Shown one piece after another: positions 8,694 through 41,416 of a stretch of 64,000 bases of DNA. The notes below the pieces were generated by a model. It saw only the letters and a list, made by a program, of their open reading frames with translations, did no database searches and was not told the DNA's origin. This DNA is from Clostridiales bacterium (GTDB taxonomy: Bacteria; Bacillota; Dehalobacteriia; UBA7702). Position 1 is the stretch's first letter. Each line of letters opens with the position of its first letter. Made by a program: the position numbers and the translations under genes. The stretch lies in NCBI GenBank assembly GCA_036644995.1, contig JAVXOZ010000009.1, positions 3,121 to 67,120 on the forward strand, given 5' to 3'.

Positions 8694-8730
8694 AAAAAAA
8701 AACCCTCACTTTTTACGGTGAGGGTTTTAA
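8694..8730. terminator. bidirectional rho-independent terminator (A9 ccctcac..gtgaggg T4)
   Basis: 7-bp GC-rich stem flanked by A-run and T-run; lies 3' of the minus-strand AICARFT gene. Confidence 0.6.
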
Positions 8731-8899: not shown

Positions 8900-10072
8900 T
8901 TAGTGATGGAAAAGACGCATTTTTGTAAATGCCATTACCATATTATATTTATCCGCAGTTGCAATTACATCGTCATCACGCACGGAACCACCGGCTTCGG
9001 CAATATATTGCACACCGCTTCTTTTTGCTCTTTCAATGTTATCACCAAAGGGGAAGAAGGCATCTGAGCCTAAGGAAACGCCGGTTAAAGTTTCTATCCA
9101 TGCACGTTTTTCTTCTCTGGTAAAAGCTTCGGGTTTTTTTGTGAAAATATTTTCCCATGCGCCATCTGCCAAAACATCCATGTAATCTTCGGAAACATAA
9201 ACATCAATAGCATTATCTCTTTCGGGACGCTTTAAATCATCTCTGAAAGGTAAATTCAATACCTTTTCATTTTGGCGAAGATACCATGTATCTGCCTTAT
9301 TACCTGCTAAGCGTGTGCAATGAACACGTGATTGTTGCCCTGCACCAATACCGATAGCTTGACCATCTTTGGCATAGCACACAGAATTAGACTGGGTATA
9401 TTTTAAAGTTATCAAGGAAAGAATTAAATCTCTCTTGGCATCTTCGGGCAATTCTTTATTGGATGTAACAATATTTTCTAAAAGTTCTTCATCGATTTTA
9501 AAATTATTTCTGCCTTGTTGGAAAGTGATGCCGAAAATGTCTTTGTATTCAACTTCCGCAGGAACATAATTTTCGTCCATTTGTACTATATTATAGCTAC
9601 CTTTTCTTTTAGTTTTTAATATTTCCAAGGCTTTTGCCGAATATGAGGGGGCAATAACCCCATCGGAAACTTCTCTGGCTAAGAATTCCGCAGTCTGCTC
9701 ATCGCATTCATCGGAAAGTGCCACAAAATCGCCGTAAGAGGACATTCTATCCGCACCACGGGCACGAATATAGGCGGTAGCCATGGGGGTTAATTCCACA
9801 CCTTCCACAAAATATACTTTTTGTAAAACATCGGTGAGGGGCACTGCCACTGCTGCTCCCGCAGGGCTAACGTGTTTAAAGGATGTGGCAGCAGGAAGAC
9901 CTGTTGCCTTTTTTAATTCACGCACCAGTTGCCAGCTATTAAAAGCATCTAAAAGGTTGATAAAACCGGGTTTACCGTTTAATACCGTAATAGGTAATTC
10001 GCCGTCTTTCATAAAGACTTTTGCGGGCTTTTGATTAGGGTTACAACCGTACTTTAATTCCATTTCTTTCAT
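8900..10072 (-). CDS. AICAR transformylase-domain protein (PurH C-terminal domain homolog; no MGS/IMP-cyclohydrolase domain)
   Basis: 390 aa; 'YGCNPNQ' equivalent of the PurH 'YGENPHQ' motif; overall AICARFT-like; preceded by ZTP riboswitch candidate. Confidence 0.6.
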   Translation of the reverse strand: MKEMELKYGCNPNQKPAKVFMKDGELPITVLNGKPGFINLLDAFNSWQLVRELKKATGLPAATSFKHVSPAGAAVAVPLTDVLQKVYFVEGVELTPMATAYIRARGADRMSSYGDFVALSDECDEQTAEFLAREVSDGVIAPSYSAKALEILKTKRKGSYNIVQMDENYVPAEVEYKDIFGITFQQGRNNFKIDEELLENIVTSNKELPEDAKRDLILSLITLKYTQSNSVCYAKDGQAIGIGAGQQSRVHCTRLAGNKADTWYLRQNEKVLNLPFRDDLKRPERDNAIDVYVSEDYMDVLADGAWENIFTKKPEAFTREEKRAWIETLTGVSLGSDAFFPFGDNIERAKRSGVQYIAEAGGSVRDDDVIATADKYNMVMAFTKMRLFHH

Positions 10073-10095
10073 TGTAAAGTATTCTCCTTTTCATT

Positions 10096-10195
10096 AAAAA
10101 GAGCCTACCAAAGAAGGCTCCTGCCCAGACGGTCGGCTTTTTGTGCTATACTCCCTGTGGTCAATTCCACTTCCGCCAGTTGTATAACTGCTTTA
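10096..10195 (-). promoter_or_regulatory. ZTP (pfl-motif) riboswitch candidate with terminator expression platform
   Basis: minus strand: 'ACTGGCGgaagtGGAATTGACCACAGGGAG...(linker)...CCGACCGTCTGGGCA' matches conserved ACUGGCG, P2 hairpin+GGGAG and 3' CCGxCCGxCUGGGCA; followed by 'gagccttctttggtaggctc+T5'; the P1 5' strand is not well matched. Confidence 0.55.
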
Positions 10196-10329
10196 AATTT
10201 AACATATTTTGATACTTTTTGCAAGTATATCAGTGATTATTATTATGTTAAAATACCGCCAACATTCAATAAAAACAAAATTTAACAGAGGAAAATCCCA
10301 TTATATTTACTAAGATTTTCCTCTGTTTA

Positions 10330-12488
10330 TTATTTATTTTTCATAGCTTCTTGGAGGGCTTGAGCCAAGGGACTGAGTTCCTGGGTTTTTTCCTGCTGAT
10401 TTTGAGTTTTCAAAAAGTTTTGCACTTCTCTTTTATTGCCGCCGCTACCTTCTTTTTTCTTTTTATGGAAGCTCTCCGCTTTTTCACGGAATCCGCAGGG
10501 GCAAATGTACATACGTTTTTCACCCTCCCCAAACATTTCCATTTTTTTATGACAATTTGGGCACCGAGCATTGGTGGTCATGGAAATATTTTTTCGATAA
10601 CCGCAGCTACGGTCTTGACAAACCAGCATTTTACCTTTTTTACCGTGTACCTCCAGCATCATCTTGCCGCATTCCGGGCAAGGAGTGCGAGTGAGATTAT
10701 CCGGCACATATTTGGCATCGCTATTGGCTACCATTTTCACCAAATTAGCGGCATAATTTCTAATTTCACCGATAAAAGCTTTGCTTTGAGTTTTGCCTTG
10801 GGCGATGGTGTCCAGCTCTTTTTCCCATTTTGCCGTTAAAAGCGGTTCTTTTAAATCCTTGGGTACTAAGTCGATAAGCTGCATCGCCTTCATCGTGGGC
10901 ACAATAACGTTATCTCTTTTTTCCATGTAAAATGAGCGGTAAAGTTTATCAATAATATCCCCACGAGTGGCAGGGGTGCCTAATCCTGCACCTATATACT
11001 CTTTCATTTTTTTATCTTCGATAAATTTAGCAGGGTTTTCCATAGCCGTGAGCAAGGTTGCCTCGGTGTACCGAGAAGGTGCTTTGGTTTTTTGGGCTTT
11101 TAGCTGGGTGTTTTTACAGGTGAAAACATCACCTTTTTTCATAGATGGCAAAGCTTGGTTTTCTTCCCCATCTTCATCTTCAAAATCGTAAACTTTTTTC
11201 CAACCTTTAGCCACCATTTCTTTGCCTTGGGCACTAAAAGATTCATCACCGCAAATAAATTCACCTTTTACATTGCGATATTCCATAGGTGGATAAAAAG
11301 CCGCTATAAACCTTTTTAAAACCAAAAAGTAAATTTTCTTTTCCTCATTTGTCATATTTAAAAGATTGGGCCGCTCCTCTGTGGGGATAATGGCATGATG
11401 GTCAGAAACCTTGGCATCGTTAATGCACACCTTTGCTATGGTTTGCTTATTTTTTATAACTTCACGGACAGGAGCTGCAAAATCTCCAAAATTAACAGCT
11501 TGCAATCTTTGCCCCAAGGTTGGCACAATATCACGGGTTAAATATGCGGAATCCGTACGTGGATAGGTTAAAACCTTATGTATTTCATAAAGTTTTTGCA
11601 TATAATTAAGGGTTTCCTTGGGTGAAAAATGGTACATTTTACTGGCATCACGCTGCAATTCCGTTAAATCGTAAAGCAATGGCGGCGGTACGGATTTTTT
11701 TGTAACCTTCATGTCAATCAACTTAAATTGAGCATTGGTGATTTTTTTCTGTATTTTAATGGCTTCTGCTTCATCATAAATAGCAGAATTCCCTTTGGCA
11801 TCTTTGCGGGTTACAAAAAAGTTGCCTAAATCTCCACGCACAACATAATAATCCTTGGGTTTAAAATTTCTAATTTCTTTTTCCCGCTCCACCATCAAAG
11901 CCAAGGTAGGTGTTTGAACCCTGCCTGCGGAAAGTTGAGCATTAAATTTACAGGTTAAAGCACGGGTTACATTTAAGCCCACCAACCAATCTGCCTCTGC
12001 CCTACTTCTGGCAGATTCATAAAGATGCACATATTCTTTGCCGTCTTTTAAGTGAGCAAAGCCATCTTTAATTGCCTTATCTGTTTGGGAAGATATCCAC
12101 AATCTTTGTATTGGTTTTTTAACCCCTACTTTATCAATTATCCAGCGGGCAACCAATTCCCCTTCACGTCCTGCATCTGTGGCGATAATAATTGAGCCTA
12201 CTTCTTTGGAACGCAAAAGTGTTTTAACCACATTATACTGTTTGGCTGTTTCCGGAATTACTTTTAAATCCATTTTTCCCGGGAGCATAGGCAAAGTTTC
12301 CATGCTCCATTTTTTATATTGGTCACCATAATGCTCCGGCTCTGCCAAAGTTACCAAATGACCCAATGCCCAAGTTACAATATATTTATCACCGATTATG
12401 CAACCGTTTTCTTTTTTCTTTGAACCCAAAACCCGTGCCAGTTCTCTGGCAACCGATGGTTTTTCTGCTAAAACCAATATTTTCGTCA
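10330..12488 (-). CDS. topB: DNA topoisomerase III with C-terminal zinc ribbons
   Basis: TOPRIM 'ILVLAEKPS', 'VTWALGHL'; multiple C4 zinc-ribbon repeats at C-terminus; RBS GGAGG 6 nt before ATG at 12488 (the ORF-track start 12501 lies inside the RBS). Confidence 0.85.
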
Positions 12489-12548
12489 TAAATACCTCCA
12501 CAACTAACTGACTATCATTATAGCATTAAAAAGCCAAATATAAAAGAA

Positions 12549-13849: not shown

Positions 13850-13932
13850 TGGTGCGGTAGGTGAGACTTGAACTCACACGCTCGCGCACACGCCCCTCAA
13901 ACGTGCCTGTCTGCCGATTCCAGCACTACCGC
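13850..13932 (-). tRNA. trnL: tRNA-Leu (anticodon GAG), type II with long variable arm, CCA encoded
   Basis: minus strand GCGGTAGTGCTGGAATCGGCAGACAGGCACGTTTGAGGGGCGTGTGCGCGAGCGTGTGAGTTCAAGTCTCACCTACCGCACCA; 7-bp acceptor, 3-bp D-stem, anticodon loop 'uUGAGgg' (U33-GAG-G37), variable-arm hairpin, T-arm GTGAG/TTCAAGT/CTCAC; resembles E. coli tRNA-Leu(GAG) D- and anticodon-arm sequences. Confidence 0.85.
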
Positions 13933-14012: not shown

Positions 14013-14609
14013 TTATTTATATATTTTTTGATAGTTTTTCAAATTATCGCTTACTGCCTGTACATAATGGGCAGTTTCCCCAAAGGGAATACTATGGGCA
14101 TCGGCTAAAGTTCCGTCCCAAACCCCATCTTTAACCCAGCTGAGCACATTTCCGTAGCCCCCGTTGTAAGCAGCAATAACTTTTGTGGTATCATTTTTAA
14201 AAATAGAATTTAAGTAAGAAATATACCAAATTGAAATTTTTAGATTATAGGAAGGCTTATCTAATTTATCCTCTTTATACTCTATGCCAATTTTACCCGC
14301 ACACCACTGAGCTGTTTCCGGCATTAGCTGCATTAGCCCTAATGCCCCTTTTTGGGAAACCGCAGTTGGCTCAAAGTTGCTCTCCTGCTTCATAATGGCA
14401 TAAACCAAATTAGAATCCACAGTGTATTCATTACAATAAGTAGCAACGGTATAAGAGTGGGGTCTGGGATAAGCCCTTTCGCTGGTATTGAATACACACA
14501 CCGCCACCAAAACAAAAATGGATAACAAAATAAATAAAATAAAGAAGGTTCCAACTTTACTTTTTTTCTGTTTTTTAGAATATCTGTTATTTTTACGACT
14601 CTTTGTCAT
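14013..14609 (-). CDS. lytic transglycosylase (SLT domain) with N-terminal membrane anchor
   Basis: 198 aa; basic N-terminus + TM; 'MKQESNFEP...GALGLMQLMPETA' catalytic Glu motif of family-1 lytic transglycosylases. Confidence 0.75.
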   Translation of the reverse strand: MTKSRKNNRYSKKQKKSKVGTFFILFILLSIFVLVAVCVFNTSERAYPRPHSYTVATYCNEYTVDSNLVYAIMKQESNFEPTAVSQKGALGLMQLMPETAQWCAGKIGIEYKEDKLDKPSYNLKISIWYISYLNSIFKNDTTKVIAAYNGGYGNVLSWVKDGVWDGTLADAHSIPFGETAHYVQAVSDNLKNYQKIYK

Positions 14610-16026
14610 CTAAAAATTTTTTCCTTTTTTCAAAAGCTTCTTTAATTTGATTTTTCATTTCCATTTCCGTACGTGAATTATCGATGATTAACTGTGCAAA
14701 TTTGGCTTTTTTTTCATAAGTCATTTGATTTACCATAATTTTAGTTGCCAATTCCTCATCAATGCCATCTCTTTTTAGCAATCTTTGCTTTTGATTTTCA
14801 TCCCCTGCATAAAGCAACCAAACTTCATCACACAATGCTGTATATTTAGCTTCGATAAGTAAAGGTGCTACCAAAATAATAAGTGCATCTTGGGATTTTT
14901 TAATGCGGCTGCTGATAATACGCCGTATTGCAGGGTGGGTTATGGCATTTAACTCCTTTACTTTTTCTTTATGGTTAAATACATTGTTACGCAACAGTAT
15001 CCTGTTTAAAGTGCCATCTTCATTGATAAATTCAGTACCAAAAGTATTTGCAATTTTATTTATTACCGTACTATTGGGTGCCATTATTTCTCTGGCTATT
15101 AAATCCGCATCTAATATTTCAGCACCGAGTATATGTAAATAGTCCGATGCTACGGTTTTACCGCTGGCAATACCCCCGGTTAAACCTATAACAATTTTTT
15201 TTCTTTTTAGTGGCTGACATTGAGGACAATAAGAGGTGCTTCTGCCGCCACATTTTGTTTTTTCTATTATGCTGCCACAATTAACACAGGGCAAACCCCC
15301 ACGCTGAAATATTTTCAAATAATTTTGAAATGTACCTTTTTCACCGTAGCCATCTCTATAATCACTAAAAGTTGTACCTCTTTTTTCAATGGCAACAGTT
15401 AACACTTCTTTTGTGGCTTTAACCAGCATTTTAATATCTTGGGTAGATAAATCAAGTCCTTCTTTTAAAGGATTCACCCCTGCAGTAAAGCAAATTTCAT
15501 CGGCATAGATATTGCCAATACCCGCAACCACACTTTGATCCAGTAAAATACTTTTAATCGGTGCGTGTTTTTTTTGGGTATATGCTAATAAATGTGCCTC
15601 GTTATATTCCGATGTTAAAGGCTCAGGACCTAATTTTTCAATTCCTGAGCCCATGTTTTGTAAATTATCCCCAATCCAAAAACCACCAAAACGACGAACA
15701 TCTCTATAATAAATGCCATTTTTTGCAAAATGGATTACCACATGGCAATGATTTATCTGGGGCAATGTTTTTTCAAAATAAACAAGTTGACCTGTCATAC
15801 GCAGATGGGCAACGATATATTTATCATTATCCAAAATAAATATCAAGTATTTACCTCGGCGTTCCATGGTTTTAACCACTCTACCCTCTAAAAAATCACA
15901 AAATTCCTCAGCAGTGCAATTTTTCAAAACACCGCTGTGGTTTACCTCTACTTTAATAATTTTTTCAGAACCAATTTGAGAAAGAATGCTGTTTTTAACC
16001 GTTTCAACTTCGGGTAATTCAGGCAT
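14593..16026 (-). CDS. mutM-coaE: fused formamidopyrimidine-DNA glycosylase (Fpg/MutM) - dephospho-CoA kinase (CoaE) protein
   Basis: 477 aa single ORF; N-terminus 'MPELPEVETV' (catalytic Pro2/Glu3), H2TH, C4 zinc finger 'CVNCG...CPQC'; C-terminal 'IGLTGGIASGKT' P-loop of CoaE; no stop or frameshift between the domains. Confidence 0.8.
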   Translation of the reverse strand: MPELPEVETVKNSILSQIGSEKIIKVEVNHSGVLKNCTAEEFCDFLEGRVVKTMERRGKYLIFILDNDKYIVAHLRMTGQLVYFEKTLPQINHCHVVIHFAKNGIYYRDVRRFGGFWIGDNLQNMGSGIEKLGPEPLTSEYNEAHLLAYTQKKHAPIKSILLDQSVVAGIGNIYADEICFTAGVNPLKEGLDLSTQDIKMLVKATKEVLTVAIEKRGTTFSDYRDGYGEKGTFQNYLKIFQRGGLPCVNCGSIIEKTKCGGRSTSYCPQCQPLKRKKIVIGLTGGIASGKTVASDYLHILGAEILDADLIAREIMAPNSTVINKIANTFGTEFINEDGTLNRILLRNNVFNHKEKVKELNAITHPAIRRIISSRIKKSQDALIILVAPLLIEAKYTALCDEVWLLYAGDENQKQRLLKRDGIDEELATKIMVNQMTYEKKAKFAQLIIDNSRTEMEMKNQIKEAFEKRKKFLDDKES

Positions 16027-18980: not shown

Positions 18981-19910
18981 ATGAAAACAAAAATCGATGT
19001 TATATCGGGATTTTTAGGTGCCGGTAAAACTACCCTAATCAAAAAAATAATACAAGGTATGCCCAGTAAAGAAGATATTGCCATAGTGGAAAACGAATTT
19101 GGCGATATTGGAATAGATGGGGATATCTTAAAGTCGTGCAATATTAACGTTCGTGAAATAAGCGGCGGCTGTATTTGTTGCAGTTTACACGGAAATTTTA
19201 TAGCCGCAGTTACAGAATTAGTTAATGAATATGCGCCCCAACGCATTATCATTGAGCCAACAGGAATTGGCAAATTATCAGATGTACTCGATGCCTTAAA
19301 ATCCGCAGGGAAAAAAGTTGATATCGAGTTTAATATAATTGCAGCAGTAGTAGACCCTTTAAAATTTCAAATACTAAACAATATGTTTGGAGCGTTCTTT
19401 CACAATCAAATAGCCACAGCGCAAACCATTTTTTTAAGCAAAGCACAATTTGCAGATGAGAACACTATTATGGACGTTACTAAAAAAATAAGGGCTATAA
19501 ACCCAGTTGCAACCATTGTAACAGCACCTTGGCAGGATTTGCCCGATACAGATATATTAAAAATAGCAGAGGATGACCGTATAGATAAAATCTTGGATTT
19601 AACAAACTATACTTACAAATATAGCAAAAATGATCCCATTTCTCAAATATCTTCATTGTGCTTTTGCCCCAAAAAGCCTCACACTAAAAAAGAATTTAGA
19701 GCTTTATTAGAAAAAATAGCAACTAATAAAGAATTGGGATTGCTTTTACGTAGCAAAGGATTTTTTAGTACCCCGGAGAATAAATTCATTCAGTTTGACT
19801 ATACTCCAGGTGCCATAAAATTCACAACATCCCATACCGATGCAGAAGATAAAATTATTATCATCGGTAAAAATCTAAATAAACCGGCAATAGATAAATA
19901 TTTTTGCTGA
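18981..19910 (+). CDS. CobW/HypB/UreG-family (COG0523) GTPase metallochaperone
   Basis: 309 aa; Walker A 'GFLGAGKTT', 'CICC' metal-binding motif, CobW C-terminal domain; first gene of the methylamine module. Confidence 0.8.
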   Translation: MKTKIDVISGFLGAGKTTLIKKIIQGMPSKEDIAIVENEFGDIGIDGDILKSCNINVREISGGCICCSLHGNFIAAVTELVNEYAPQRIIIEPTGIGKLSDVLDALKSAGKKVDIEFNIIAAVVDPLKFQILNNMFGAFFHNQIATAQTIFLSKAQFADENTIMDVTKKIRAINPVATIVTAPWQDLPDTDILKIAEDDRIDKILDLTNYTYKYSKNDPISQISSLCFCPKKPHTKKEFRALLEKIATNKELGLLLRSKGFFSTPENKFIQFDYTPGAIKFTTSHTDAEDKIIIIGKNLNKPAIDKYFC

Positions 19911-19941: not shown

Positions 19942-21786
19942 ATGGAATATAATATTAAATTTGAATCACACGATATAAGTGAAAACATAGAAGGCGGCAA
20001 AACTATATTAGAAGCAGCAGCTTTAGCATCTATTCCCATTGAAGGAAATTGCGGCGGAGCGGGAAATTGCAAAAAATGTCAAGTGGCAATTTTAGATAAT
20101 AAAGTTTTTGCGGCAAACGCCATCCCTGCCCTATCAAAAAACAAGCCACAAATGGTTCTTGCCTGCAAATATAAGATACACAGTGACCTTACCATAAACG
20201 TTCCCATTCAAAATGATGCTTTTAAACGTAAAACCACAATGAATTTTCAAAATAAAGATATAAAACCAAATTCCTCTATTGGTAAATCCTACATTGAATT
20301 GGATAAACCTTCTATTAATAACCAAATACCGGATTACGAACGCATAGTTACGGCACTGAACCTTAAGCCCGGAAATCCCAGTAAGGAATTATTGCAAATA
20401 TTGCCAAGGGTGTTACGGGATTCAAAATTTTCCATAACCGCAGTAACCAGAGATAATGAATTAATTTGGGTAGAACCCGGAGATACCACCGCAGAAAATT
20501 ACGGTTTGGTATATGATATTGGCACTACAACTGTGGTATGCCACTTGATTAATTTAACAAACGGTGCCATAGAAAAATCCACAGCAGATACCAATCCCCA
20601 AAATATTTTTGGTGCAGATGTAATTTCACGGGTTAACCACGTGATGACCAATTCCAAAAATAATAAAGGTTTAAACCAACTTTATACAAAAATAAATACC
20701 GTTATCAATGCACTTGCCGTAGAATTAATCAGAAAAAAGAGTATAGATAAAAATAGAATATATGATGTTACCGTTGTTGGCAATACAACAATGAGCCAAC
20801 TATTCATGGGTGTAGACCCCACTTATTTAGCAACATCCCCATTTATTCCCACTTACGTTCAAGGGGTGAATTTAAAAGCTTCAGAACTAAACCTGGATAT
20901 TAACCCCACAGCAAATGTTTTTTTACTTCCTAATATAGCAGGATATGTAGGCTCTGACACTGTGGGAGTAATTTTGGCAACTCATTTACATAAACAACCT
21001 GAATACAGCCTTGCCATTGATGTTGGCACCAATGGCGAACTGGCACTCAGCGGCAATGGTAAAATTCTTACTTGTTCCACCGCAGCAGGTCCCGCTTTTG
21101 AGGGTGCCCAAATAAAATGCGGCATGAGAGCAGCAGAAGGTGCCATAGAAGCCGTTTATATTGATAATGAAACAGGAACTTGTACATATGAAACCATTGG
21201 CAACACAAAACCCAAAGGTATATGCGGTTCCGGGGTATTAGATGTAGTGGCACAACTTTATAAAAGCGGTATTCTTGATAAATTTGGTGCTTTTAGATTC
21301 GGCAGAAATAACGATGGACACATCAACGATAAACTAAAAGAACGCATAAGCAAAGGTGACCACGGCTACGAATTTGTTTTGGCAACCGCTAAAGAAGCAT
21401 ATAAAGGAATACCCATTGTTATATGCCAAAAAGACATAAGGGAATTGCAAATGGGTAAAGGCGCAATTTATGCCGGCATTAAAATTTTAATGAAAGAAAT
21501 GAACATAACCGTTGAAAATCTACAAAAAATTATGATTGCCGGTGCTTTTGGCAATTATATAAAAGTTGAAAGTGCACTTGCCATAGGTTTACTGCCAAAT
21601 ATAACTAAAGATAAAATATCCTCTGTGGGAAATGCGGCTTCTGAAGGCGCAAGGCTGGCTCTAATATCTAAAGATGAAAGGGAACTCGGCTGTGAGCTGG
21701 CAAAACGCTGTAAGCATATTGAATTATCTTCATACGAAGAATTCCAAAATGAATACATGAATGCTTTAAATTTTCCTGAAATATAA
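19942..21786 (+). CDS. ramA: reductive activator of corrinoid proteins, RamA/RACo-type ([2Fe-2S] ferredoxin N-domain + ASKHA ATPase DUF4445)
   Basis: 614 aa; N-terminal 'CGGAGNCKKCQV' plant-type ferredoxin cluster; C-terminal actin-fold ATPase region; sits upstream of mtmCB. Confidence 0.75.
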   Translation: MEYNIKFESHDISENIEGGKTILEAAALASIPIEGNCGGAGNCKKCQVAILDNKVFAANAIPALSKNKPQMVLACKYKIHSDLTINVPIQNDAFKRKTTMNFQNKDIKPNSSIGKSYIELDKPSINNQIPDYERIVTALNLKPGNPSKELLQILPRVLRDSKFSITAVTRDNELIWVEPGDTTAENYGLVYDIGTTTVVCHLINLTNGAIEKSTADTNPQNIFGADVISRVNHVMTNSKNNKGLNQLYTKINTVINALAVELIRKKSIDKNRIYDVTVVGNTTMSQLFMGVDPTYLATSPFIPTYVQGVNLKASELNLDINPTANVFLLPNIAGYVGSDTVGVILATHLHKQPEYSLAIDVGTNGELALSGNGKILTCSTAAGPAFEGAQIKCGMRAAEGAIEAVYIDNETGTCTYETIGNTKPKGICGSGVLDVVAQLYKSGILDKFGAFRFGRNNDGHINDKLKERISKGDHGYEFVLATAKEAYKGIPIVICQKDIRELQMGKGAIYAGIKILMKEMNITVENLQKIMIAGAFGNYIKVESALAIGLLPNITKDKISSVGNAASEGARLALISKDERELGCELAKRCKHIELSSYEEFQNEYMNALNFPEI

Positions 21787-22132: not shown

Positions 22133-22777
22133 ATGTCCGATACAATTTTAAAGAAACTTAAAGAAGCCGTTGTAAATTTAGACCAGGAGGCCGCATTAGC
22201 CGCCGCCAAAGAAGCCTTAGACGCTAAAATGGATCCCGTTAACTCCATAGAAAATGGTTTAACAGCAGGAATGAACGAAATCGTAGATCGCTTTGATGAG
22301 GGCGAAATGTTCATGCCGCAAATCCTTATTGCCGCTCAAGCATTCATGGGTGCTTGCGAAATTTTACAAAGTGGTATTTCCGTAGAAGAAGCTGCCAAAA
22401 TGAGTAACGGCAGAGTAATGTTCTTCACAGTAGCCGGTGACATTCATGATATCGGCAAAAATATTGTTAAAACAATGTTTATGGCTAACAACTTTGAAGT
22501 TTGCGACTTAGGCCGTGACGTTGCAGCCGATGTAGTAGTTGATAAAGCTATCGAATGGAAAGCCGACATCATTGCCGGTTCCGCATTGATGACAACCACC
22601 ATGCCCGGTCAAAGAGATATCGTTGCTACTTTGGTAGAACGTGGTATCCGTGATGACTTTAAAGTAATGTTTGGTGGAGCTCCTGTTAATCAACAATGGT
22701 GTGATGAAATTGGTGCTGACGCTTATGGCGACAACGCTGCTGACTCCATCGAAATTGCTAAAAAATTAGTAAAATAA
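22133..22777 (+). CDS. mtmC: monomethylamine corrinoid protein (B12-binding, DxHxxG), MtmC-like
   Basis: 214 aa; helical cap domain then Rossmann B12-binding domain with 'GDIHDIG' (His-on cobalt ligand motif); directly upstream of mtmB. Confidence 0.85.
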   Translation: MSDTILKKLKEAVVNLDQEAALAAAKEALDAKMDPVNSIENGLTAGMNEIVDRFDEGEMFMPQILIAAQAFMGACEILQSGISVEEAAKMSNGRVMFFTVAGDIHDIGKNIVKTMFMANNFEVCDLGRDVAADVVVDKAIEWKADIIAGSALMTTTMPGQRDIVATLVERGIRDDFKVMFGGAPVNQQWCDEIGADAYGDNAADSIEIAKKLVK

Positions 22778-22802
22778 AAAATATTTGAAGGGCGGTAATA
22801 CT

Positions 22803-24188
22803 ATGACTTACAAAGAACGTGTTGGTGTTTTTGAAGCTTACCATCGTGCAATAACCGGTCCCCGTGTTAGCGAAAGCGAATGGGATAGCGTTATTATTCC
22901 CGGTACACTTACAAAACTCAAAGAAAAATATAATATCAAAATGGACAAAGGCACTGTTGTTCCTACCGATGATACTTTAATTAATAATATATTTAAAGCC
23001 GGTTTGGAAATGTTAACCACTGTTGGTGTTTATTGCATAGATACCGGCAGAGTTATTAAATATACAGAAGATGAAATCTTAACAGCCATCAAAAATACTC
23101 CCAAAGAATTTTATCTTGGTGAAGGCACTGATGCTGTTTTAATGAAAGACAGAAAACATGACTCCGAACGTTTCCCCATTATCCAAGGTGGACCTACCGG
23201 TGCTCCTGTTTCTGAAGAACAATTCTTAAATATGCATGAAGCATATGCCAAAGAACCTTTGGTAGACACCATTGTTAATGGCGTTCTCCAAACATGGCAT
23301 GGTCATGACCCCATTCCTAACACTCCTTATGAAATCGCAGCGGTTCGTTCCGAAGTTCAAATGCTTCGCTTGGCACAAACCAGAGCCGGTCATCCCGGCA
23401 TGGCATTGTAGGGCAGTGAAACTTCACTCTCTGCAGCAGGCGTTATCTGTTCTGACTTCCAAGGCGGAATGCGGCCAACAGACAGCCATGAAGTATCTCA
23501 ATTAAACGAATTGAAAATTGACTTAGCAGCTTTAACTTTCTGCTCTTACTATGTATTAAGTGGTCAAACTATTATGTGCGAACATATGCCCATATATGGC
23601 GGTTACACCGGTGGTCTTGAGGAAACGACTATCAGTGACGTTGCCAGCACGCTTAATGCTTTCGTAATGGCTCAAGGTAATTATGTATTAGACGGTCCCG
23701 TTCATATGCGTTGGGGAATCACCACTGCCAGAGAGGCTTTGGCAGTTGCTGGTCACTGTGCAAGAGCAATCAATGCTAATACAGAACTTATGTTAGCTAA
23801 CCAATATTACACCATGGCAGGTCCCTGTACTGTTATGTGCCTGTTAGAAACAGCTGCACAAGCAATGACAGATACCGCCAGCGGTCGTGAATTACTCTCC
23901 GGTGTTGCCGCCGCTAAAGGTGTTACCACCAACTTTAATACTCCTATGGAAGCCAGATTTATGGGTCAAGTTGCTCGTGCAACTGCCGGTAAAGATCTTT
24001 CAGTAGTTAATCCTATAATTGACTCATTATTGAAAATGTACGAAAAAGATTATAAAACTGCTCCTGTTGGCAAATCATTCGAAGAATGCTATGACCTTAC
24101 TACATTGCAACCTACTGATGAATATATCAGCGTATATGATGAAGCAGCAGAAGTATTAGCAAAGCTTGGTTTAGAATTAGGTAAATAA
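22803..24188 (+). CDS. mtmB: monomethylamine methyltransferase MtmB with in-frame UAG (23409-23411) decoded as pyrrolysine; single gene, not two ORFs
   Basis: ORFs 22785..23411 and 23469..24188 are in the same frame separated by exactly one TAG; the context 'GHPGMAL-UAG-GSETSLSAAG...GGMRPTDSHEVSQLNELKIDL' closely matches Methanosarcina MtmB around Pyl202 ('GRPGMGV-O-GPETSLSAQG...TDSHEVSQLNELKIDL'); UAG is codon 203 from ATG 22803; total about 461 aa, MtmB-sized. Confidence 0.85.
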
Positions 24189-24232: not shown

Positions 24233-25255
24233 ATGAATAAAAGAGAAAGATTTATGAATGCGATTCAAGGTCAAGAAACAGATAGGGTGTCCGTTTTTTG
24301 TGCCAATCAAACCGCAACATACGAACAAATGGAGGAATTGGGTGCCTCTTTTCCCGAAGCTAATTACGAAGCAGCCACTATGGCTAAATTAGCAGCGGGT
24401 GCACATAGCATTTTGGGATTTGACGCAGTTCGTGTTCCATTTTGCCAAACCATCGAATCCGAAGCTTTGGGCTGTAAGCTCCAAGATGGCGGTAAAGAAG
24501 GTATGCCAAGTATTGGCACTCATCCATACAGCGTTGATGATGAAATTCCATCCCTTGACGATTTAGTTTCCAAAGGGAGGATTCCTGTTGTTGCCGAAGC
24601 AGTTAAACTGCTTAAGGAATCTGTTGGCGATGAAGTCGCTGTTCTTGGTGGGATTGTTGGCCCATTTAGTATCGCCACAAACTTACTGGGTCTTATGAAT
24701 ATCATGATGGCCGTTGTTATGGAACCCAAAAAATTAGAACCTTGGTTAGAGCTTGCGGGAGATGCAGCCACCATTTATGGTGATGCATTAATCGAAGCAG
24801 GAGCCGATGGCATAGTTATTGAAGATATGATGGCATCCATGGATATGATTAGCCCTCAAATCTATCACGACCTTGCCGGTCCCTATATGAAGCGTTTGGT
24901 TGATCGCTTAGGCGATATTCCCACTATTCTTCATATATGCGGAAAAGTAAACAAATTAGTTGTTGATATGATTGATACCGGCGTTTCTGCCTTTAGTGTA
25001 GATACGAATATTGATATTGCAGATATTCAAGACAAAATCGCAAAAAGCGGCAAAACCGTTATGGTTGTAGGCGGAATTGATGCAGTAAACACATTATTCT
25101 ATGGCACCGAAATTGGTCCTACCACAGAAGAAGGAACAAAAGCAATTAAAGCCGGGTTTAATTTACTTGCACCCTCCTGCTCCATTCCTCCTGCTACACC
25201 AGTTACAAAACTGCGTGCAATGGTAGAAGTTGCGGTTTCGTTAGCCGGTAAATAA
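24233..25255 (+). CDS. methylcorrinoid:acceptor methyltransferase (MT2), uroporphyrinogen-decarboxylase (URO-D) family, MtbA/MtaA-like
   Basis: 340 aa; URO-D fold; 'ILHICGKV' with His-x-Cys zinc ligands typical of MtaA/MtbA. Confidence 0.75.
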   Translation: MNKRERFMNAIQGQETDRVSVFCANQTATYEQMEELGASFPEANYEAATMAKLAAGAHSILGFDAVRVPFCQTIESEALGCKLQDGGKEGMPSIGTHPYSVDDEIPSLDDLVSKGRIPVVAEAVKLLKESVGDEVAVLGGIVGPFSIATNLLGLMNIMMAVVMEPKKLEPWLELAGDAATIYGDALIEAGADGIVIEDMMASMDMISPQIYHDLAGPYMKRLVDRLGDIPTILHICGKVNKLVVDMIDTGVSAFSVDTNIDIADIQDKIAKSGKTVMVVGGIDAVNTLFYGTEIGPTTEEGTKAIKAGFNLLAPSCSIPPATPVTKLRAMVEVAVSLAGK

Positions 25256-25356: not shown

Positions 25357-26550
25357 ATGATCAATTCCGGTGATATTGCTTTTCTAATTATCTGCACATT
25401 AATTGTTATACTAATGACACCTGGAGTTGCAATTTTATATGGTGGTTTAGTAGATAAAAAACACACTAACACCATGATAATGCAAAATTTTATTGCTATT
25501 ACTATTATAACCTTGGTTTGGGCTATTTGCGGCTTTACTATAGCCTACGGCAATAATATTGCCGGTGGATTTATAGGTGGCTTTGATTATTTATTTTTGC
25601 AGGGGGTTTCTGCCGAACCTCATGCAATATTAGCTCCAACCGTACCTTTTACTCTATTTTTTGTATTACAAGCAGCTTTCGCCATCATTACCCCGGCTTT
25701 AATTTGCGGGGCTTTGGTGGGTAGAGCCAGACTTTTACCATACGTGATTTTTATCGCTTTATGGAGTCTTTTAATTTACAGCCCTGTGGTTCACTGGGTT
25801 TGGGGCGGTGGATTTTTAAGCCAATGGGGCTACATAGATTTCGCCGGTGGCGTACCTGTGCATATGATTGCAGGATTTTCTGCCTTAGCTGCGGTAATTG
25901 CCTTGGGTAACAGAAAAATTCCTAAAGATGGACCCAGCAACATGATGCACCTGGCAATAAGCATGGGCATTTTATGTGCGGGCTGGTTTGCCTTTAACAC
26001 TTGCAGTGCATTAGCAGCCAATGCTACTGCGGCTGTGGCTGCCACCAATACCTTATTAGCGGCTGCTGCAGGTAGTTTTATGTGGTTGATTTTGGGCTAT
26101 ATAAAGAACAAAAAGGCCGACTTATTAGATATATTTTTCGGAATATTAGCCGGTCTTGTGGTTAGTTCTCCCATATCGGGATTTGTTTCACCTTGGGTAG
26201 CTATGATTAGTGGTTTCATCGCCGGATTGTTCTGCTATTATGCTGTGCAATTCCGCACCTATAAAAATTGGGATGATACTTTAGATGTATGGGCTATTCA
26301 CGGTTGTGGTGGTTTGCTTGGGGTTTTAATTGTGGGTCTTTGTGCGAACCCCGCAATAGCACCAACAGCAGGTCTTTTATACGGCAATTCCCAACAACTG
26401 CTAATACAGGCAAGTGGCATATTAATTGGCGGACTATATAGCTTTATACTCACCTTTGTGTTAATAAAAGTTATTAATAAAGTTTGTCCTTTTAACTTTA
26501 AAAAAGACCATCCTGAATTTGAAGCAACCAAACAGGATATAAGTCTTTAA
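25357..26550 (+). CDS. amt: Amt/MEP-family ammonium/methylammonium permease
   Basis: 397 aa, about 11 TM helices; Amt signature 'DFAGG..VH' and conserved His in TM regions; last gene of the mtm module. Confidence 0.8.
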   Translation: MINSGDIAFLIICTLIVILMTPGVAILYGGLVDKKHTNTMIMQNFIAITIITLVWAICGFTIAYGNNIAGGFIGGFDYLFLQGVSAEPHAILAPTVPFTLFFVLQAAFAIITPALICGALVGRARLLPYVIFIALWSLLIYSPVVHWVWGGGFLSQWGYIDFAGGVPVHMIAGFSALAAVIALGNRKIPKDGPSNMMHLAISMGILCAGWFAFNTCSALAANATAAVAATNTLLAAAAGSFMWLILGYIKNKKADLLDIFFGILAGLVVSSPISGFVSPWVAMISGFIAGLFCYYAVQFRTYKNWDDTLDVWAIHGCGGLLGVLIVGLCANPAIAPTAGLLYGNSQQLLIQASGILIGGLYSFILTFVLIKVINKVCPFNFKKDHPEFEATKQDISL

Positions 26551-34309: not shown

Positions 34310-34540
34310 AAAAACACCCTACTTGCACGACCAAGTAAGGTGTTTGATGATTCCATGGAAATCATTACACATTGCCATCGACCGTAACAAAAGTGTAGGT
34401 ACCCCATACTTGGCAGGTCTTCTGGCTCAAAGGGCTTACCCTTCTTACAGCGGCGCGACCGCGCAGGATTCTCACCTGACTTCCCTATTCTCCCGTCCAT
34501 TGACTGAACGAGCACCAAATATGTTCTGTTTGTGAATATG
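34310..34540 (-). promoter_or_regulatory. cobalamin riboswitch upstream of cbiMNQO-cbiK
   Basis: minus strand 'AGGGAAGTCAGGTGAGAATCCTGCGCGGTCGCGCCGCTGTAAGAAGGG' matches the cobalamin-riboswitch core (AGGGAA..GGUGnnAAUCC..GCGG..CGCC-B12 box-like GCCGCUG). Confidence 0.7.
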
Positions 34541-34724
34541 TTAGCACAGCGGTAAATCAATGTCAATATTATTTTTTTATTAAATCCAATATTTTGCCTT
34601 AAAATCCTTGGAAATTCCGCACTTTTACTGGATTTAAAAGATTATCAAAAATATAAAAAATAATACTTGAATTTTTTCAAATATTGTAATATACTATTAC
34701 TTAGTTCTTATACAATTTGAACAA

Positions 34725-34900
34725 GCGGTGCCTTTTGGCATAAAAGAAAAGCAGGCTAAAATCCTGCACTGTCCCAGCAACCGTATTACTGACGAAAAGA
34801 TGTAAACCACTGTTTCTAAGGAAATGGGAAGGTATCTGAGTAGAATGAAGTTAAGTCGGTAGACCTACCGTTTGTAATTTTTCTCCTGGGTAGAGTTTTT
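34725..34900 (+). promoter_or_regulatory. probable second cobalamin riboswitch, divergent, upstream of cobQ-cbi-hem operon
   Basis: 'GGTGCC...AAAAGCAGGCTAAAATCCTGCACTGTCCCAGCAACCG...ACCACTG' contains GGUGCC, AAAAUCC and B12-box-like elements but deviates from the consensus order. Confidence 0.4.
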
Positions 34901-34965: not shown

Positions 34966-36465
34966 ATGGAGGTGTTGATAATGAAAGGAATTATGATTCA
35001 AGGCTGCACAAGCGATGCAGGGAAAAGCTATGTAACCACTGCCTTGTGCCGCATTTTTAAAGATATGGGCTACAAAACCTGTCCTTATAAAAGCCAAAAT
35101 ATGTCCAATAACTCCTATGTAACTTGGGATGGTTGCGAAATTGGCCGTGCCCAAGGCGTTCAGGCTGAAGCTGCAGGGGTAAGACCCGAAACATATATGA
35201 ACCCTATTTTACTGAAGCCACAAAAAGATTGCGGTTCTGAAGTTGTGTTATTCGGTAAAGTATATAAAACCCTTTCCGGCAAAGAATATCACGATTCATT
35301 TACGATGAATGAAGGGTTAAAAGCCGCCCGTGAAGGGTTAAAAATCATTGAAGAAAAGTTTGATGTCATCGTCATTGAGGGTGCAGGCAGCCCTGCGGAA
35401 GTTAATTTAAACGACAGAGAAATAGTAAATATGCGTATAGCCAACGAAGCAGATGTACCTGTTTTACTGGTGGTTGATATCAACCGTGGTGGTTCTTTTG
35501 CCTCGGTGGTTGGCACTTTGGAATTAGTGGGTAAAGACCGTAGCCGCATTAAAGGCATTATTTTCAACCAATTCCGTGGTGACCTTTCCCTTTTTGAAGA
35601 TGGGGTTAAATGGATAGAAGAATACACAGGCATTAAAGTAGTTGGGGTTTTACCATACTTTAAAGATATTCAAATTGAAGGTGAGGATTCTTTAAGCATA
35701 AAATTCCAGCATAATAGCGGTTCTAAAGATGCAGTGGAACTGGGAATAGTGCGTATGCCCTATATATCCAACCACACAGATATGGAAATTTTTCAATATG
35801 AAGATGATGTAAATATTAGCTTTATAGATGAATTTTCATCTTTGGATAAATACGATGCCATAATTATTCCCGGCACCAAAAGCACCATCGGGGATTTGGA
35901 ATATTTGGAACAGCGTGGTGTTGCCGCCAAATTAAAAGCCTTTAAAGGCACTATTTTTGGAATTTGCGGCGGTTATCAAATAATGGGGGAAACCTTAATA
36001 GATGAAAATGGTATAGATTTTAAACCCGGCTACAAAAAAGAAGGATTGGGAATTTTACCTTTAACCACCTATTTTCAAAAGCAAAAAGAGGTGGGTCAGG
36101 TAACTGCCAAAGGCATACACCCAGCCGTTAAAGATATTGAAGTTTTGGGCTACGAAATACATTTGGGCAGAACCGATAAAACCAACGATGATATTTTACC
36201 CCTTTGGGAAATAGACGGTCACTGGGATGGGGTTGCCACCAAAGACTTTAGATGTGCGGGTTCCTACCTACACAATATTTTCCACAACGATAATTTCCGC
36301 ACTATTTGGTTAAACCAAATCAGAGCCAAAAAATCTTTACCCCAGCGTGAAGCCGTAGATACCGTGGCTTTTAAAGAAGAACAATACAGAAAGCTGGGAG
36401 AATATGCCAAAGAATATTTGGATATGGACTATATTATGAGCTTAATGAAAGAAGGAAATGAATAA
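34966..36465 (+). CDS. cobQ: cobyric acid synthase (CobQ/CbiP), DTB-synthetase-like ATPase + GATase1 domain
   Basis: 499 aa; N-terminal 'QGCTSDAGKSY' P-loop; C-terminal glutamine amidotransferase with 'GICGGYQ'. Confidence 0.85.
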   Translation: MEVLIMKGIMIQGCTSDAGKSYVTTALCRIFKDMGYKTCPYKSQNMSNNSYVTWDGCEIGRAQGVQAEAAGVRPETYMNPILLKPQKDCGSEVVLFGKVYKTLSGKEYHDSFTMNEGLKAAREGLKIIEEKFDVIVIEGAGSPAEVNLNDREIVNMRIANEADVPVLLVVDINRGGSFASVVGTLELVGKDRSRIKGIIFNQFRGDLSLFEDGVKWIEEYTGIKVVGVLPYFKDIQIEGEDSLSIKFQHNSGSKDAVELGIVRMPYISNHTDMEIFQYEDDVNISFIDEFSSLDKYDAIIIPGTKSTIGDLEYLEQRGVAAKLKAFKGTIFGICGGYQIMGETLIDENGIDFKPGYKKEGLGILPLTTYFQKQKEVGQVTAKGIHPAVKDIEVLGYEIHLGRTDKTNDDILPLWEIDGHWDGVATKDFRCAGSYLHNIFHNDNFRTIWLNQIRAKKSLPQREAVDTVAFKEEQYRKLGEYAKEYLDMDYIMSLMKEGNE

Positions 36466-37409
36466 TGCCTATATTCATTAGTACATTTCTGGATTTTATC
36501 TTGGGAGATCCCAAAGGATTCCCCCACCCCATTATATTAGTGGGTAAGCTTATTGGTTTTTACGAAAAATTATTTTACCGTGGTAAAAATAAAAAGCTCA
36601 TGGGGTTTTTCTTTATGCTGACGGTTCTTGGCACAGTAGGTGGGGTTTTAGCCTTAATTTTATGGTTAGCATCTAAATGGATGCCTCTTTACTGGATTAT
36701 CAGCATCTACTTACTTTACACCTCTTTAGCTTGGCGTTCCTTAAAAAAGGAAACAGGCTATGTGTTTCAAGCTTTAAAAAGAGGAAATATTGTCAAAGCC
36801 AGAAAAATGCTATCTTATGTGGTTGGTCGTGATACCGACGAACTAAACGAGGAAGAAATTATTAAAGCCACCTTGGAAACCATTGGGGAAAATACCATAG
36901 ATGGGGTTTTGGCTCCACTGTTTTATATGATAATCGGCTATTTTATAGGTATTCCTGTGATATTTGTTTATCTTTATAAATCCATCAATACCTTAGATTC
37001 CATGGTGGGTTATAAAAACGATAAATACGAGGATTTCGGTTATTTTTCGGCAAAGCTTGATGATGTAGTAAACTGGATACCCGCCAGAATAGGCTCGTTT
37101 ATCATGCTTTTAGGTGGTTTAATCTTAGGCTACGACTTTAAAAACGGCTGCAAAATTTGGAAGCGTGACCGCTTTGCCCATAATAGTCCCAACAGTGCCC
37201 AATCCGAAAGCGTGGTTGCAGGATTACTGGGAGTGCAGCTGGGTGGTGCCCATTGCTATTTTGGCAAAGAAATTTTTAAACCCACCATCGGCGATGCTTT
37301 AAGAGAGCCAAACCAAGATGATTACACAAAATGCTGCCGCATTTTAGATGCCGGCGTTATTATAACTTTATTGATATACACAGGCTTTTATTTAATTAAA
37401 ATTCTGTAA
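36465..37409 (+). CDS. cbiB: adenosylcobinamide-phosphate synthase (CobD/CbiB), membrane protein
   Basis: 314 aa polytopic; CbiB family; start overlaps cobQ stop. Confidence 0.8.
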   Translation: MPIFISTFLDFILGDPKGFPHPIILVGKLIGFYEKLFYRGKNKKLMGFFFMLTVLGTVGGVLALILWLASKWMPLYWIISIYLLYTSLAWRSLKKETGYVFQALKRGNIVKARKMLSYVVGRDTDELNEEEIIKATLETIGENTIDGVLAPLFYMIIGYFIGIPVIFVYLYKSINTLDSMVGYKNDKYEDFGYFSAKLDDVVNWIPARIGSFIMLLGGLILGYDFKNGCKIWKRDRFAHNSPNSAQSESVVAGLLGVQLGGAHCYFGKEIFKPTIGDALREPNQDDYTKCCRILDAGVIITLLIYTGFYLIKIL

Positions 37410-37420
37410 ACGGAGGAAAT

Positions 37421-38050
37421 ATGGAACACAATATTATTAACGAACCCAAAGCCATTGAAACAAAAAGCTTTGAAATTATCACCGAAATTTTAGGCGATAG
37501 AGTATTCCCCCAAGAACAACAAGGGGTTTTAAAAAGAGTCATTCACACCAGTGCGGATTTTGACTATGCAGATAATTTAGTTTTTGGCAACGACCCCATC
37601 GCCAGTGCCATCAAGGCATTTAAACAAGGATGTACTGTGGTTACTGATACTAATATGGCGGTTTCCGGCATCAATCAAACCAATCTTTCCAAATTTAATT
37701 CTGCTAAAGTTTGCTATATCGCAGAGCCGGAAATTGCAAAATTGGCAAAAGAACACAACACCACCCGTGCTGTGCAATCCATGGAATACGCCATAACCAA
37801 ATCGGAAAATAAAATATTCGCCATTGGCAATGCTCCCACAGCTTTAATAGCCCTTTACGATATGATTAAAGCAGGCAAAATCAAACCTGCCTTGGTGGTT
37901 GGTGTGCCTGTGGGCTTTGTAAATGTGGTGGAATCCAAAGAAATGTTTATGGAATTGGATGTACCCTATATTATTGCCAAAGGCAGAAAAGGCGGTAGCA
38001 ATGTGGCAGCCGCCATTATCAATGCCATTTTATTAGAGGCTTTGAAATAA
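37421..38050 (+). CDS. cbiC: cobalt-precorrin-8 methylmutase
   Basis: 209 aa; CbiC/CobH family. Confidence 0.75.
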   Translation: MEHNIINEPKAIETKSFEIITEILGDRVFPQEQQGVLKRVIHTSADFDYADNLVFGNDPIASAIKAFKQGCTVVTDTNMAVSGINQTNLSKFNSAKVCYIAEPEIAKLAKEHNTTRAVQSMEYAITKSENKIFAIGNAPTALIALYDMIKAGKIKPALVVGVPVGFVNVVESKEMFMELDVPYIIAKGRKGGSNVAAAIINAILLEALK

Positions 38051-38053
38051 GCC

Positions 38054-40382: not shown

Positions 40383-41404
40383 AAACAGCAATTATAGCTT
40401 TAACCAAAAACGGCACTCAAACCGCAATTAAACTCGGTAAATTAATGAAAAGTGATATCTATGTAAAATATCCCCACGAGGAAAAAGGTATTAATGTTTT
40501 CAGCCTCAGCCTTAAGGAATTGGTTAAAGACATTTTTGATGAATATGAAGCCTTTATTTTAATTATGGCAACAGGCATTGCCTTTCGCACCTTTGCACCT
40601 TATATAAAAACCAAGGATTGCGACCCTGCACTAATAGTAATGGACGAAAAAGCACAATTTGCCATTAGCTTATTAAGCGGTCATTTAGGCGGAGCAAATG
40701 AATTAACCCAAGAAATTGCGGAATTAATCGGGGCAATTCCCGTTATTACCACCGCCACCGACGTTAATAAAACCATAGCCTTTGATTTGGTAGCAAAGAA
40801 AAATAACTGCGCCATTGAAAATATAGGTGCTACAAAATTTATCAGCGGTGCTTTGGTAAACGGTGAAACAATATCTTTACACTGCCCCTACCCTATCCTT
40901 GGGCAACTGCCCAAAGAAGTTACAGATTACACTAAAGACCCCCAAGAAAATGTAGTAACAATATCCAATAAAATTGAGCAATTACCCCAAAATCACGTTT
41001 TATATTTAAGACCAAAAAACTTAGTTTTGGGCATAGGTTGCAGACGCAATACACCTTTTAGCACCATTGAAAAAGCCTTTACGGAATTTATGAGCCAAGA
41101 AAAATACAGTATTTTATCCATTAAAGCCATAGCCTCCATTGATTTAAAAAAAGGTGAAACAGGCATTTTGGCTTTGGCAGAAAAATATAAACTGCCATTT
41201 ATAACATTTACAGCAGAAGATTTAAACAAATATACCATTGAAAGCGATGGTTCACAATTTGTAAAAGAAACCACAGGTACTGCTTCGGTATCTCAAAGTG
41301 CTGCTTTAGCAATGTGCAAAAACGGCAAAACAGTAATTAAAAAAACCATCTGCCAAGGTATAACCTTGAGCTTAGCAGAAGAAATAACTGAAATACGGAT
41401 TTAA
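40379..41404 (+). CDS. cbiG: cobalt-precorrin-5A hydrolase
   Basis: 341 aa; CbiG family. Confidence 0.7.
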   Translation: MKTAIIALTKNGTQTAIKLGKLMKSDIYVKYPHEEKGINVFSLSLKELVKDIFDEYEAFILIMATGIAFRTFAPYIKTKDCDPALIVMDEKAQFAISLLSGHLGGANELTQEIAELIGAIPVITTATDVNKTIAFDLVAKKNNCAIENIGATKFISGALVNGETISLHCPYPILGQLPKEVTDYTKDPQENVVTISNKIEQLPQNHVLYLRPKNLVLGIGCRRNTPFSTIEKAFTEFMSQEKYSILSIKAIASIDLKKGETGILALAEKYKLPFITFTAEDLNKYTIESDGSQFVKETTGTASVSQSAALAMCKNGKTVIKKTICQGITLSLAEEITEIRI

Positions 41405-41416
41405 GGAGAAATTAAA

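Follow-up and report, generated by a model that had tools for sequence, protein, structure and literature searches.

Upstream of a gene for a stand-alone AICAR formyltransferase (AICARFT), purV, lies a leader in which a preliminary description had proposed a candidate ZTP (pfl) riboswitch. The locus raises the question of whether this RNA is genuine and, if so, how it might control the gene. We addressed both points within the 64-kb window, the whole stretch of DNA that was analysed, and among related loci.

The purV leader contains a ZMP/ZTP-type aptamer by covariance model and structure

The window was scanned against Rfam 15 at gathering thresholds. A match to RF01750 (ZMP/ZTP, pfl motif) was returned by cmscan of the whole window at 10193..10116 on the minus strand, scoring 54.2 bits against a gathering threshold of 39 (E = 5e-6) and covering positions 1-86 of the 86 in the model; it is the sole ZTP match in the 64 kb. 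The covariance model thus bears out the earlier call. The strings quoted with that call are present on the minus strand, ACUGGCGGAAGUGGAAUUGACCACAGGGAG at 10181..10152 and CCGACCGUCUGGGCA at 10136..10122, the latter being followed by a hairpin and UUUUU (10100..10096). From the 3′ end of the aptamer to the ATG of the AICAR formyltransferase gene, on the same strand, the distance is 43 nt. The elements of the aptamer are as follows.

10116..10193, minus strand: ZMP/ZTP aptamer (RF01750), full model, covarying in 27 leaders
10145..10188, minus strand: 5′ subdomain, with P1, J1/2 and P2 read from the sequence and the Rfam match
10188..10182 with 10151..10145, minus strand: P1, 7 bp, all standard pairs
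Within the 5′ subdomain, minus strand: J1/2, ACUGGCGG
10170..10167 with 10160..10157, minus strand: P2
10123..10137, minus strand: 3′ subdomain, GCCGACCGUCUGGGC
10137..10135 with 10125..10123, minus strand: P3
10177..10173 (GGCGG) with 10132..10128 (CCGUC), minus strand: pseudoknot, 5 bp, four Watson-Crick pairs and one G.U

Every defining feature of RF01750 that can be tested from sequence was found in the window aptamer. The 5′ subdomain at 10188..10145 has the order P1, J1/2 (ACUGGCGG), P2 (GUGG..CCAC) and GGGAG; it is joined by a linker of 8 nt to the 3′ subdomain, where GCCGACCGUCUGGGC at 10137..10123 provides the P3 hairpin with its conserved CCGNCUGGGC feature. In the Rfam alignment the non-standard positions are the three outermost pairs of P1 (in a 10-pair consensus) and the outermost pair of P3. 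Three of the five consensus pairs of P3 are standard in the window, and P3 is 100% paired in the relatives. The 5′ strand of P1 had been described as poorly matched, which holds for the three outermost of Rfam's 10 pairs only; the inner seven are all standard and covary in the relatives, and a weak P1 is thereby ruled out. The preliminary description had also made its call depend on a pairing competent to form the pseudoknot, and such a pairing was found, joining J1/2 to the loop of P3 and 100% paired across the 27 homologous leaders. Judged by its sequence, the purV leader contains a genuine ZMP/ZTP-type riboswitch aptamer. A ZTP sensor ahead of a ligand-consuming enzyme is well known, and both families (RF01750 and purV) are known from the literature, as is the association between pfl/ZTP RNAs and the step catalysed by AICAR formyltransferase; the finding is correct but ordinary.

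The aptamer is conserved and covaries ahead of purV orthologues

Related loci were gathered by a contig scan of one genome per species that gave at least 576 related stretches, and the 80 closest among those listed were kept. In 26 of these 80, RF01750 precedes the purV orthologue on its coding strand (50.8-70.6 bits, Rfam gathering threshold); the 26 come from Peptococcaceae, Lachnospiraceae, Anaerovoracaceae, Oscillospirales and Selenomonadaceae. ZTP control of a stand-alone AICAR formyltransferase is therefore common, being found in 26 of 80 related genomes from several Bacillota families. The aptamer is situated 40-140 nt ahead of purV in 21 of the 26 loci and about 270 nt ahead in two, and in three (L019, L021 and L025) it precedes a purO-purV operon.

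The 27 leaders, including that of the window, were aligned, and the structure that was scored includes the pseudoknot. Standard pairs occupy 96.1% of the cells, as compared with 33-45% when the partners are slid by 1-3 columns, and none of 500 shuffles equalled the observed pairing or covariation. Compensatory changes on both sides occur in eight pairs, seven of them in P1 and one in the pseudoknot, the latter a change from G-C to A-U in L006. The position that is G.U in the window pseudoknot is also G.U in L005 and is A-U in the other 25 of the 27 leaders.

Several observations on these loci stand apart from the alignment. The ZTP riboswitch that heads a purO-purV operon (L019:1647-2476, L021 and L025) belongs to Candidatus Merdivicinus. 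Two ZTP aptamers ahead of purV orthologues, at L060:1474-1552 and L076:2379-2455, have no U-run of at least four before the start codon, and their platform may be translational rather than a terminator. In a Bacillota metagenome-assembled genome (MAG), a match to the azaaromatic (yjdF) riboswitch (L010:4366-4468, 50.6 bits), cut by the end of the locus, lies downstream of the purV orthologue.

purV encodes a full-length stand-alone AICAR formyltransferase

The preliminary description had taken the 390-aa product for a homolog of the PurH C-terminal domain that lacks the IMP cyclohydrolase (MGS) half. This was confirmed by domain searches: the protein matches Pfam PF01808 only (profile positions 75-311), without an MGS/IMPCH domain, and the NCBIfam equivalog NF005492, named 'phosphoribosylaminoimidazolecarboxamide formyltransferase', over positions 1-390 of 390 with 727.3 bits against a cut-off of 415. 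It falls below the cut-offs of the bifunctional PurH models TIGR00355 and NF002049. In a comparison with PDB entries, residues 2-390 align end to end with residues 202-592 of human ATIC (E about 1e-144), and the start of the protein is the equivalent of ATIC residue 201. Lys66-His67 lies in the motif SFKHVSPAG and aligns with the same residues of human ATIC, K266 and H267, the catalytic Lys-His dyad of the AICARFT site. The resemblance to the C-terminal AICARFT half of eukaryotic ATIC (PDB 1p4r, 1g8m and 7mgq) thus extends from end to end and includes this motif, but the window protein is bacterial and is without the fused N-terminal IMP cyclohydrolase domain. Solved bacterial PurH structures are all far more distant from the window protein (E 1e-20 to 1e-29) than eukaryotic ATIC is; in sequence comparisons this pattern hints that the NF005492 clade and eukaryotic ATIC are evolutionarily related in an unusual way.

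The absence of the cyclohydrolase half had been considered unusual for bacteria. The arrangement is indeed that of a minority, with purH present in 85% of bacterial genomes and purV in 81 bacterial genomes, where it is mostly paired with purJ or purO (PMC6486802). It is not novel, however: NF005492 is a curated family, Cruz et al. 2019 gave the stand-alone gene the name purV (PMC6486802), and all 80 of the kept relatives are stand-alone, since an in-frame stop lies at most 84 codons upstream in each. Stand-alone AICARFT is a known arrangement that is widespread in gut Clostridia, Negativicutes and Bacteroides, and the full-length NF005492 match, the intact catalytic motif and the 80 stand-alone relatives rule out an oddity or a truncated pseudogene. 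An identical PurV protein is encoded in the MAGs GCA_036647135.1 and GCA_036660415.1.

The window protein resembles the NF005492/purV family (PMC6486802) in being a full-length 390-aa protein without an IMPCH domain and differs in its surroundings, since the relatives often lie beside a PurO-type IMP cyclohydrolase whereas the window purV stands alone, with no purO or purJ nearby. A PurO-type enzyme adjoins purV in about 42 of the 80 related loci. The purO gene is immediately upstream of purV in about 37 loci, only three of which (L019, L021 and L025) carry the riboswitch, and it is downstream of purV in L008 and L012. Within the 64-kb window, Pfam searches of 53 proteins, comprising all but three of the ORFs of at least 150 aa, revealed no PurO, PurJ, purH-N (MGS/IMPCH) or other pur gene, and tblastn with PurO from L019 found no PurO (best E = 4.2).

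The purV transcription unit appears to be monocistronic

The elements that flank the riboswitch in the order of transcription are listed below.

10330..12501, minus strand: upstream topoisomerase gene, identity from Pfam
10284..10327, minus strand: terminator hairpin of the topoisomerase gene, 17-bp stem and U-rich tail, -22.5 kcal/mol, z = -5.9
10224..10251, minus strand: candidate sigma-70-type promoter, TTAACA, 16-nt spacer with TG, TATACT; consensus match only
10096..10100, minus strand: U5 tract, one nt (C10101) past the long terminator hairpin described below
10084..10089, minus strand: Shine-Dalgarno sequence AAGGAG, 11 nt ahead of the ATG
10072, minus strand: purV ATG
8900..10072, minus strand: purV, stand-alone AICAR formyltransferase, 390 aa (Pfam, NCBIfam, PDB alignment)
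8699..8728, minus strand: intrinsic-terminator-like hairpin after purV, 11-bp stem followed by the T-run TTTTTGGCTT
8012..8087: tRNA-Trp, beyond purV

The hairpin at 10284..10327, as well folded as which none of 200 shuffles was found, insulates the purV unit from upstream transcription. The candidate promoter at 10251..10224 has 10 of 12 consensus matches and an extended -10 TG, and its agreement with the consensus places the transcription start probably near 10217. The unit appears to be monocistronic because the terminator-like hairpin at 8728..8699 and tRNA-Trp follow purV.

The expression platform resembles that of the Clostridium beijerinckii pfl switch

Folding of the leader produced two hairpins within 10138..10100, neither of which was listed by the terminator scan.

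10102..10138, minus strand: long terminator hairpin (OFF state), 37 nt, minimum-free-energy fold, -15.8 to -16.5 kcal/mol
10100..10121, minus strand: invader self-hairpin, 7 bp with an 8-nt loop, GGAGCCU (10121..10115) pairing with AGGCUCU (10106..10100)

The long hairpin has 12 pairs in three helices (AGCC/GGCU, ACCG/UGGU and GGGC/GCCU). Its substrate, AGCCGACCGUCUGGGC, comprises P3 and the pseudoknot strand; its loop is AGGA and its invader GCCU-UCUU-UGGU-A-GGCU. The hairpin uses up both strands of P3 as well as the pseudoknot strand and ends 1 nt before the U5 tract. Together with U5 it excludes P3 and the pseudoknot, whereas the short hairpin (-10.6 kcal/mol) is compatible with the folded aptamer. 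In the relatives the terminators have computed energies of -15 to -25 kcal/mol, and the median falls to -4.7 kcal/mol once the 15-nt 3′ subdomain is blocked.

Classically, pfl RNAs are found upstream of purH and ligand is expected to raise expression, an ON switch being implied by terminators that overlap the motif in its 3′ portion (PMC2864571). The C. beijerinckii (Cbe) pfl RNA has been shown to antiterminate in response to ZMP through ligand-gated strand displacement; cotranscriptional SHAPE and mutagenesis showed that the terminator nucleates by invasion of P3 and then propagates through the pseudoknot, and that ZMP binding turns P3 into a barrier against strand displacement, resulting in antitermination (bioRxiv 10.1101/521930; PMC10085676).

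The window leader belongs to the same aptamer family as Cbe pfl (Strobel et al. 2019; Bushhouse and Lucks 2023), and the 23 nt at the 3′ end of its aptamer, CACAAAAAGCCGACCGUCUGGGC, are identical to the Cbe pfl aptamer, which ends in CACAAAAAGCCGACCGTCTGGGC. After the Cbe aptamer follow A7, the invader GCCTGGATTGCGTCGGC and TTTTT (PMC10085676 supplement); the window platform likewise runs from a loop through an invader that can pair, apart from internal mismatches, with P3 and the pseudoknot strand, to U5. The two differ in several respects. The window loop is AGGA rather than A7, and its nucleotides extend the self-hairpin to 7 bp (-10.6 kcal/mol, against -3.7 kcal/mol in Cbe). The window invader is interrupted by larger elements that do not pair, namely a 3x4 internal loop and a G/A mismatch, and the window terminator is consequently weaker (-16.5 vs -22.6 kcal/mol). 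The window linker of 8 nt is without the Cbe linker hairpin, its pseudoknot contains a G.U, and the gene regulated is purV, not pfl. The window platform is thus a naturally occurring version of the best-studied ZTP switch in which the substrate strand is unchanged but the loop and invader are very different, and the published rules of strand-displacement tuning could be tried on it as a natural test case.

Because the 23 nt and the hairpin design are shared with Cbe pfl, a ZMP-gated ON switch is likely. By this analogy we interpret the purV leader as a C. beijerinckii pfl-type ZMP/ZTP riboswitch that acts as a transcriptional ON switch, with a probability of roughly 0.8. Given the predicted ligand binding, ON polarity, promoter and termination efficiency, the switch would operate as follows. 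The aptamer (10193..10116) would fold during synthesis, with P1/P2 and the P3 hairpin joined by the 5-bp pseudoknot. When 10-formyl-THF is short, ZMP (AICAR ribotide) and its triphosphate would accumulate and bind at the interface of the subdomains, locking P3 and the pseudoknot, in which case the invader (GCCU..UGGU.GGCU, 10118..10102) would be barred from the 3′ strand of P3 and from the pseudoknot strand. The long terminator (10138..10102 and U5) would then not form, RNA polymerase would read into purV, and the additional AICAR formyltransferase would consume ZMP. With no ligand, the invader would displace P3 and the pseudoknot, and the 12-pair hairpin beside the U-run would stop transcription. 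An inverted (OFF) logic, as in the synthetic 'flip' design of Bushhouse and Lucks, is not supported, since the long ligand-free hairpin lies 1 nt from the U-run and is terminator-competent.

An ON switch makes metabolic sense because the purV enzyme consumes ZMP using 10-formyl-THF (PMC2864571). The ZTP switches upstream of purH in Firmicutes (Weinberg et al. 2010) have the same sensor and the same target reaction, AICAR formylation with 10-formyl-THF, and differ from that of the window in that their target is bifunctional PurH rather than a stand-alone AICARFT. The link to folate stress we infer from published work on the ZTP family, and with it the purV gene of this uncultured, low-GC, pyrrolysine-using Clostridia-like bacterium would be assignable to the ZTP (folate-stress/purine) regulon. 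Such riboswitches (pfl motif) are reportedly located upstream of purH in Firmicutes also in work from 2015 by Kim and colleagues.

A ligand-independent short hairpin may limit or modify switching

When the 3′ subdomain is blocked, the short hairpin has a computed energy of -10.3 to -10.6 kcal/mol and is flush with UUUU of the U-run. The free state is only 5.9 kcal/mol more stable than the blocked one, the narrowest difference among the 28 leaders computed (the relatives' median is about 15). By the same calculation, wild-type Cbe pfl has -22.6 kcal/mol free and -3.7 kcal/mol blocked, and functional purH/pflA chimeras have about -22 free and -6.2 to -6.7 kcal/mol blocked; the analogous short hairpins of the relatives and of Cbe pfl are weaker than that of the window. 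Some of the self-hairpin is bound to arise, since a strand complementary to the P3 hairpin must itself be able to fold into one. Validated switches have weaker blocked-state hairpins (-3.7 to -6.7, against -10.6 in the window), which makes the dynamic range of the window switch uncertain; in this modeling, a terminator-like hairpin that forms regardless of ligand could restrict induction or even prevent it. Further points against an ON switch are the G.U in the pseudoknot (vs A-U in 25 of the 27 leaders), the three standard pairs of P3 and the U-run of only five.

L006, L020 and a set of metagenomic leaders (L117, L129/L172/L175 and L204) likewise have dual-hairpin platforms, and L005 has a weaker one. 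In L006, L020 and the metagenomic set, GGCUCU recurs unchanged as the 3′ arm, which suggests selection rather than decay. A metagenome scan with CCGTCTGGGCARGAGYC for like platforms gave 120 matches, of which six are ZTP leaders, too few for covariation of the short against the long hairpin. It is conceivable, though doubtful, that these platforms make up a recurrent ZTP sub-design in which the short hairpin is selected as a three-state strand-displacement variant: both the post-P3 sequence A/G-GAG-Y-C and the 5′ strand of P3 are complementary to the GGCUCU arm, which adjoins a short U-run, so the arm would have a pairing partner with or without ligand. Were the short hairpin selected for its own sake, it could serve to lock the invader away from the bound aptamer, to release the Shine-Dalgarno (SD) sequence or to set a deliberate ceiling on induction. 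From the modeled folds of the window leader, it may correspondingly cap induction, shield the bound aptamer from the invader or form part of translational control.

The same energies bear on the reading that the aptamer is real and binds ZMP but the platform is a weak or near-constitutive attenuator, with the self-hairpin (10121..10100) terminating regardless of ligand and purV expression set mostly by read-through. The blocked-state hairpin of -10.6 kcal/mol flush with the U-run, and a gap of 5.9 kcal/mol where the relatives have a median of about 15, would suit such an attenuator and lie outside the range of experimentally functional platforms. Nonetheless, the dual design recurs in independent lineages (L006, L020, L117, L129/L172/L175 and L204) with GGCUCU kept, the self-hairpin is in part unavoidable, and validated switches carry self-hairpins by their U-runs and yet switch. 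We therefore consider a near-constitutive attenuator unlikely.

Control could instead be dual or mainly translational. In ligand-free read-through transcripts, the 3′ arm and the U-run together, CUCUUUUU (10103..10096), would sequester the SD sequence AAAAGGAG (10091..10084), and in the bound state the short hairpin would tie up this anti-SD and free the ribosome-binding site (RBS). The unconstrained fold of the full leader does pair UCUUUUU with AAGGAGA, and the SD is free when the fold is constrained to contain the aptamer. L006 has this 8-bp complementarity too, four pairs of the short hairpin in the window are not needed for the long terminator hairpin, and the ZTP leaders of L060 and L076, lacking a U-run, indicate that non-terminator platforms exist in the purV family. 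Yet the anti-SD helix is weak, being rich in A-U and G.U pairs, a U-run followed by an A-rich SD yields such pairing almost automatically, and the pairing is absent in L020, L117 and L129. The long hairpin with U5, moreover, matches a proven terminator design. Dual or mainly translational control is accordingly quite improbable, and a transcriptional ON switch of the Cbe pfl type is the reading we retain.

A chance resemblance, or a decayed ZTP element without regulatory function, is scarcely credible as an account of the leader: the mismatched outer three consensus pairs of P1, the one wobble in the pseudoknot and a score of 54.2 bits, moderate next to the 70 bits of L019, are outweighed by a full-model match 15 bits over gathering that is single in 64 kb, by a correct position and orientation ahead of a classic target gene and by conservation of the leader with covariation in 26 other genomes, and a chance match is ruled out by Rfam score and conservation.

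Other features of the window

The window has a G+C content of about 37% and holds several other features. A gene for the monomethylamine methyltransferase MtmB (22785-24188, plus strand) is interrupted by an in-frame TAG at 23409-23411, with the Pfam MtmB profile matched at positions 2-195 and 197-450 by the halves on either side, and Rfam finds PYLIS_1 at 23409-23508 with 74.5 bits against a gathering threshold of 70. The gene is flanked by genes for CobW (18981-19910), a RACo-type corrinoid activator (19942-21786), a corrinoid protein (22133-22777), an MtbA/URO-D-like methyltransferase (24233-25255) and an ammonium transporter (25357-26550). By sequence homology this cluster indicates a pyrrolysine-dependent methylamine pathway in a Clostridia-like bacterium; neither pylT nor pylS was seen in the window.

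Two divergent cobalamin riboswitches lie back to back at 34395-34534 (minus strand) and 34709-34886 (plus strand), with 79.9 and 78.5 bits. One heads genes for cbiM/cbiQ/cbiO-type cobalt transport and cbiK (34282-30700), and the other heads an operon of about 17 kb for cobalamin and siroheme-branch biosynthesis (34966-52237).

Tandem near-identical genes at 6706-6993 and 7143-7427 (both plus strand) encode proteins of 95 and 94 aa with two treble-clef zinc-finger domains (PF13451 and PF23477). A tRNA-Leu (GAG) was located by ARAGORN at 13850-13932 (minus strand) and is absent from the Rfam gathering-threshold scan of the window. An ORF of 477 aa (14593-16026, minus strand) joins a complete Fpg/MutM DNA glycosylase (residues 1-272) to the dephospho-CoA kinase CoaE (278-452), the result of a gene fusion or else of the loss of a stop codon that separated two neighbours. 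Finally, a reading frame at 60458-64000 (plus strand) of more than 1181 codons runs past the end of the window and for that reason does not figure in the ORF lists, and its N-terminus looks like an ASKHA/BadF-type ATPase, to judge from the motif DIGSTTVK.
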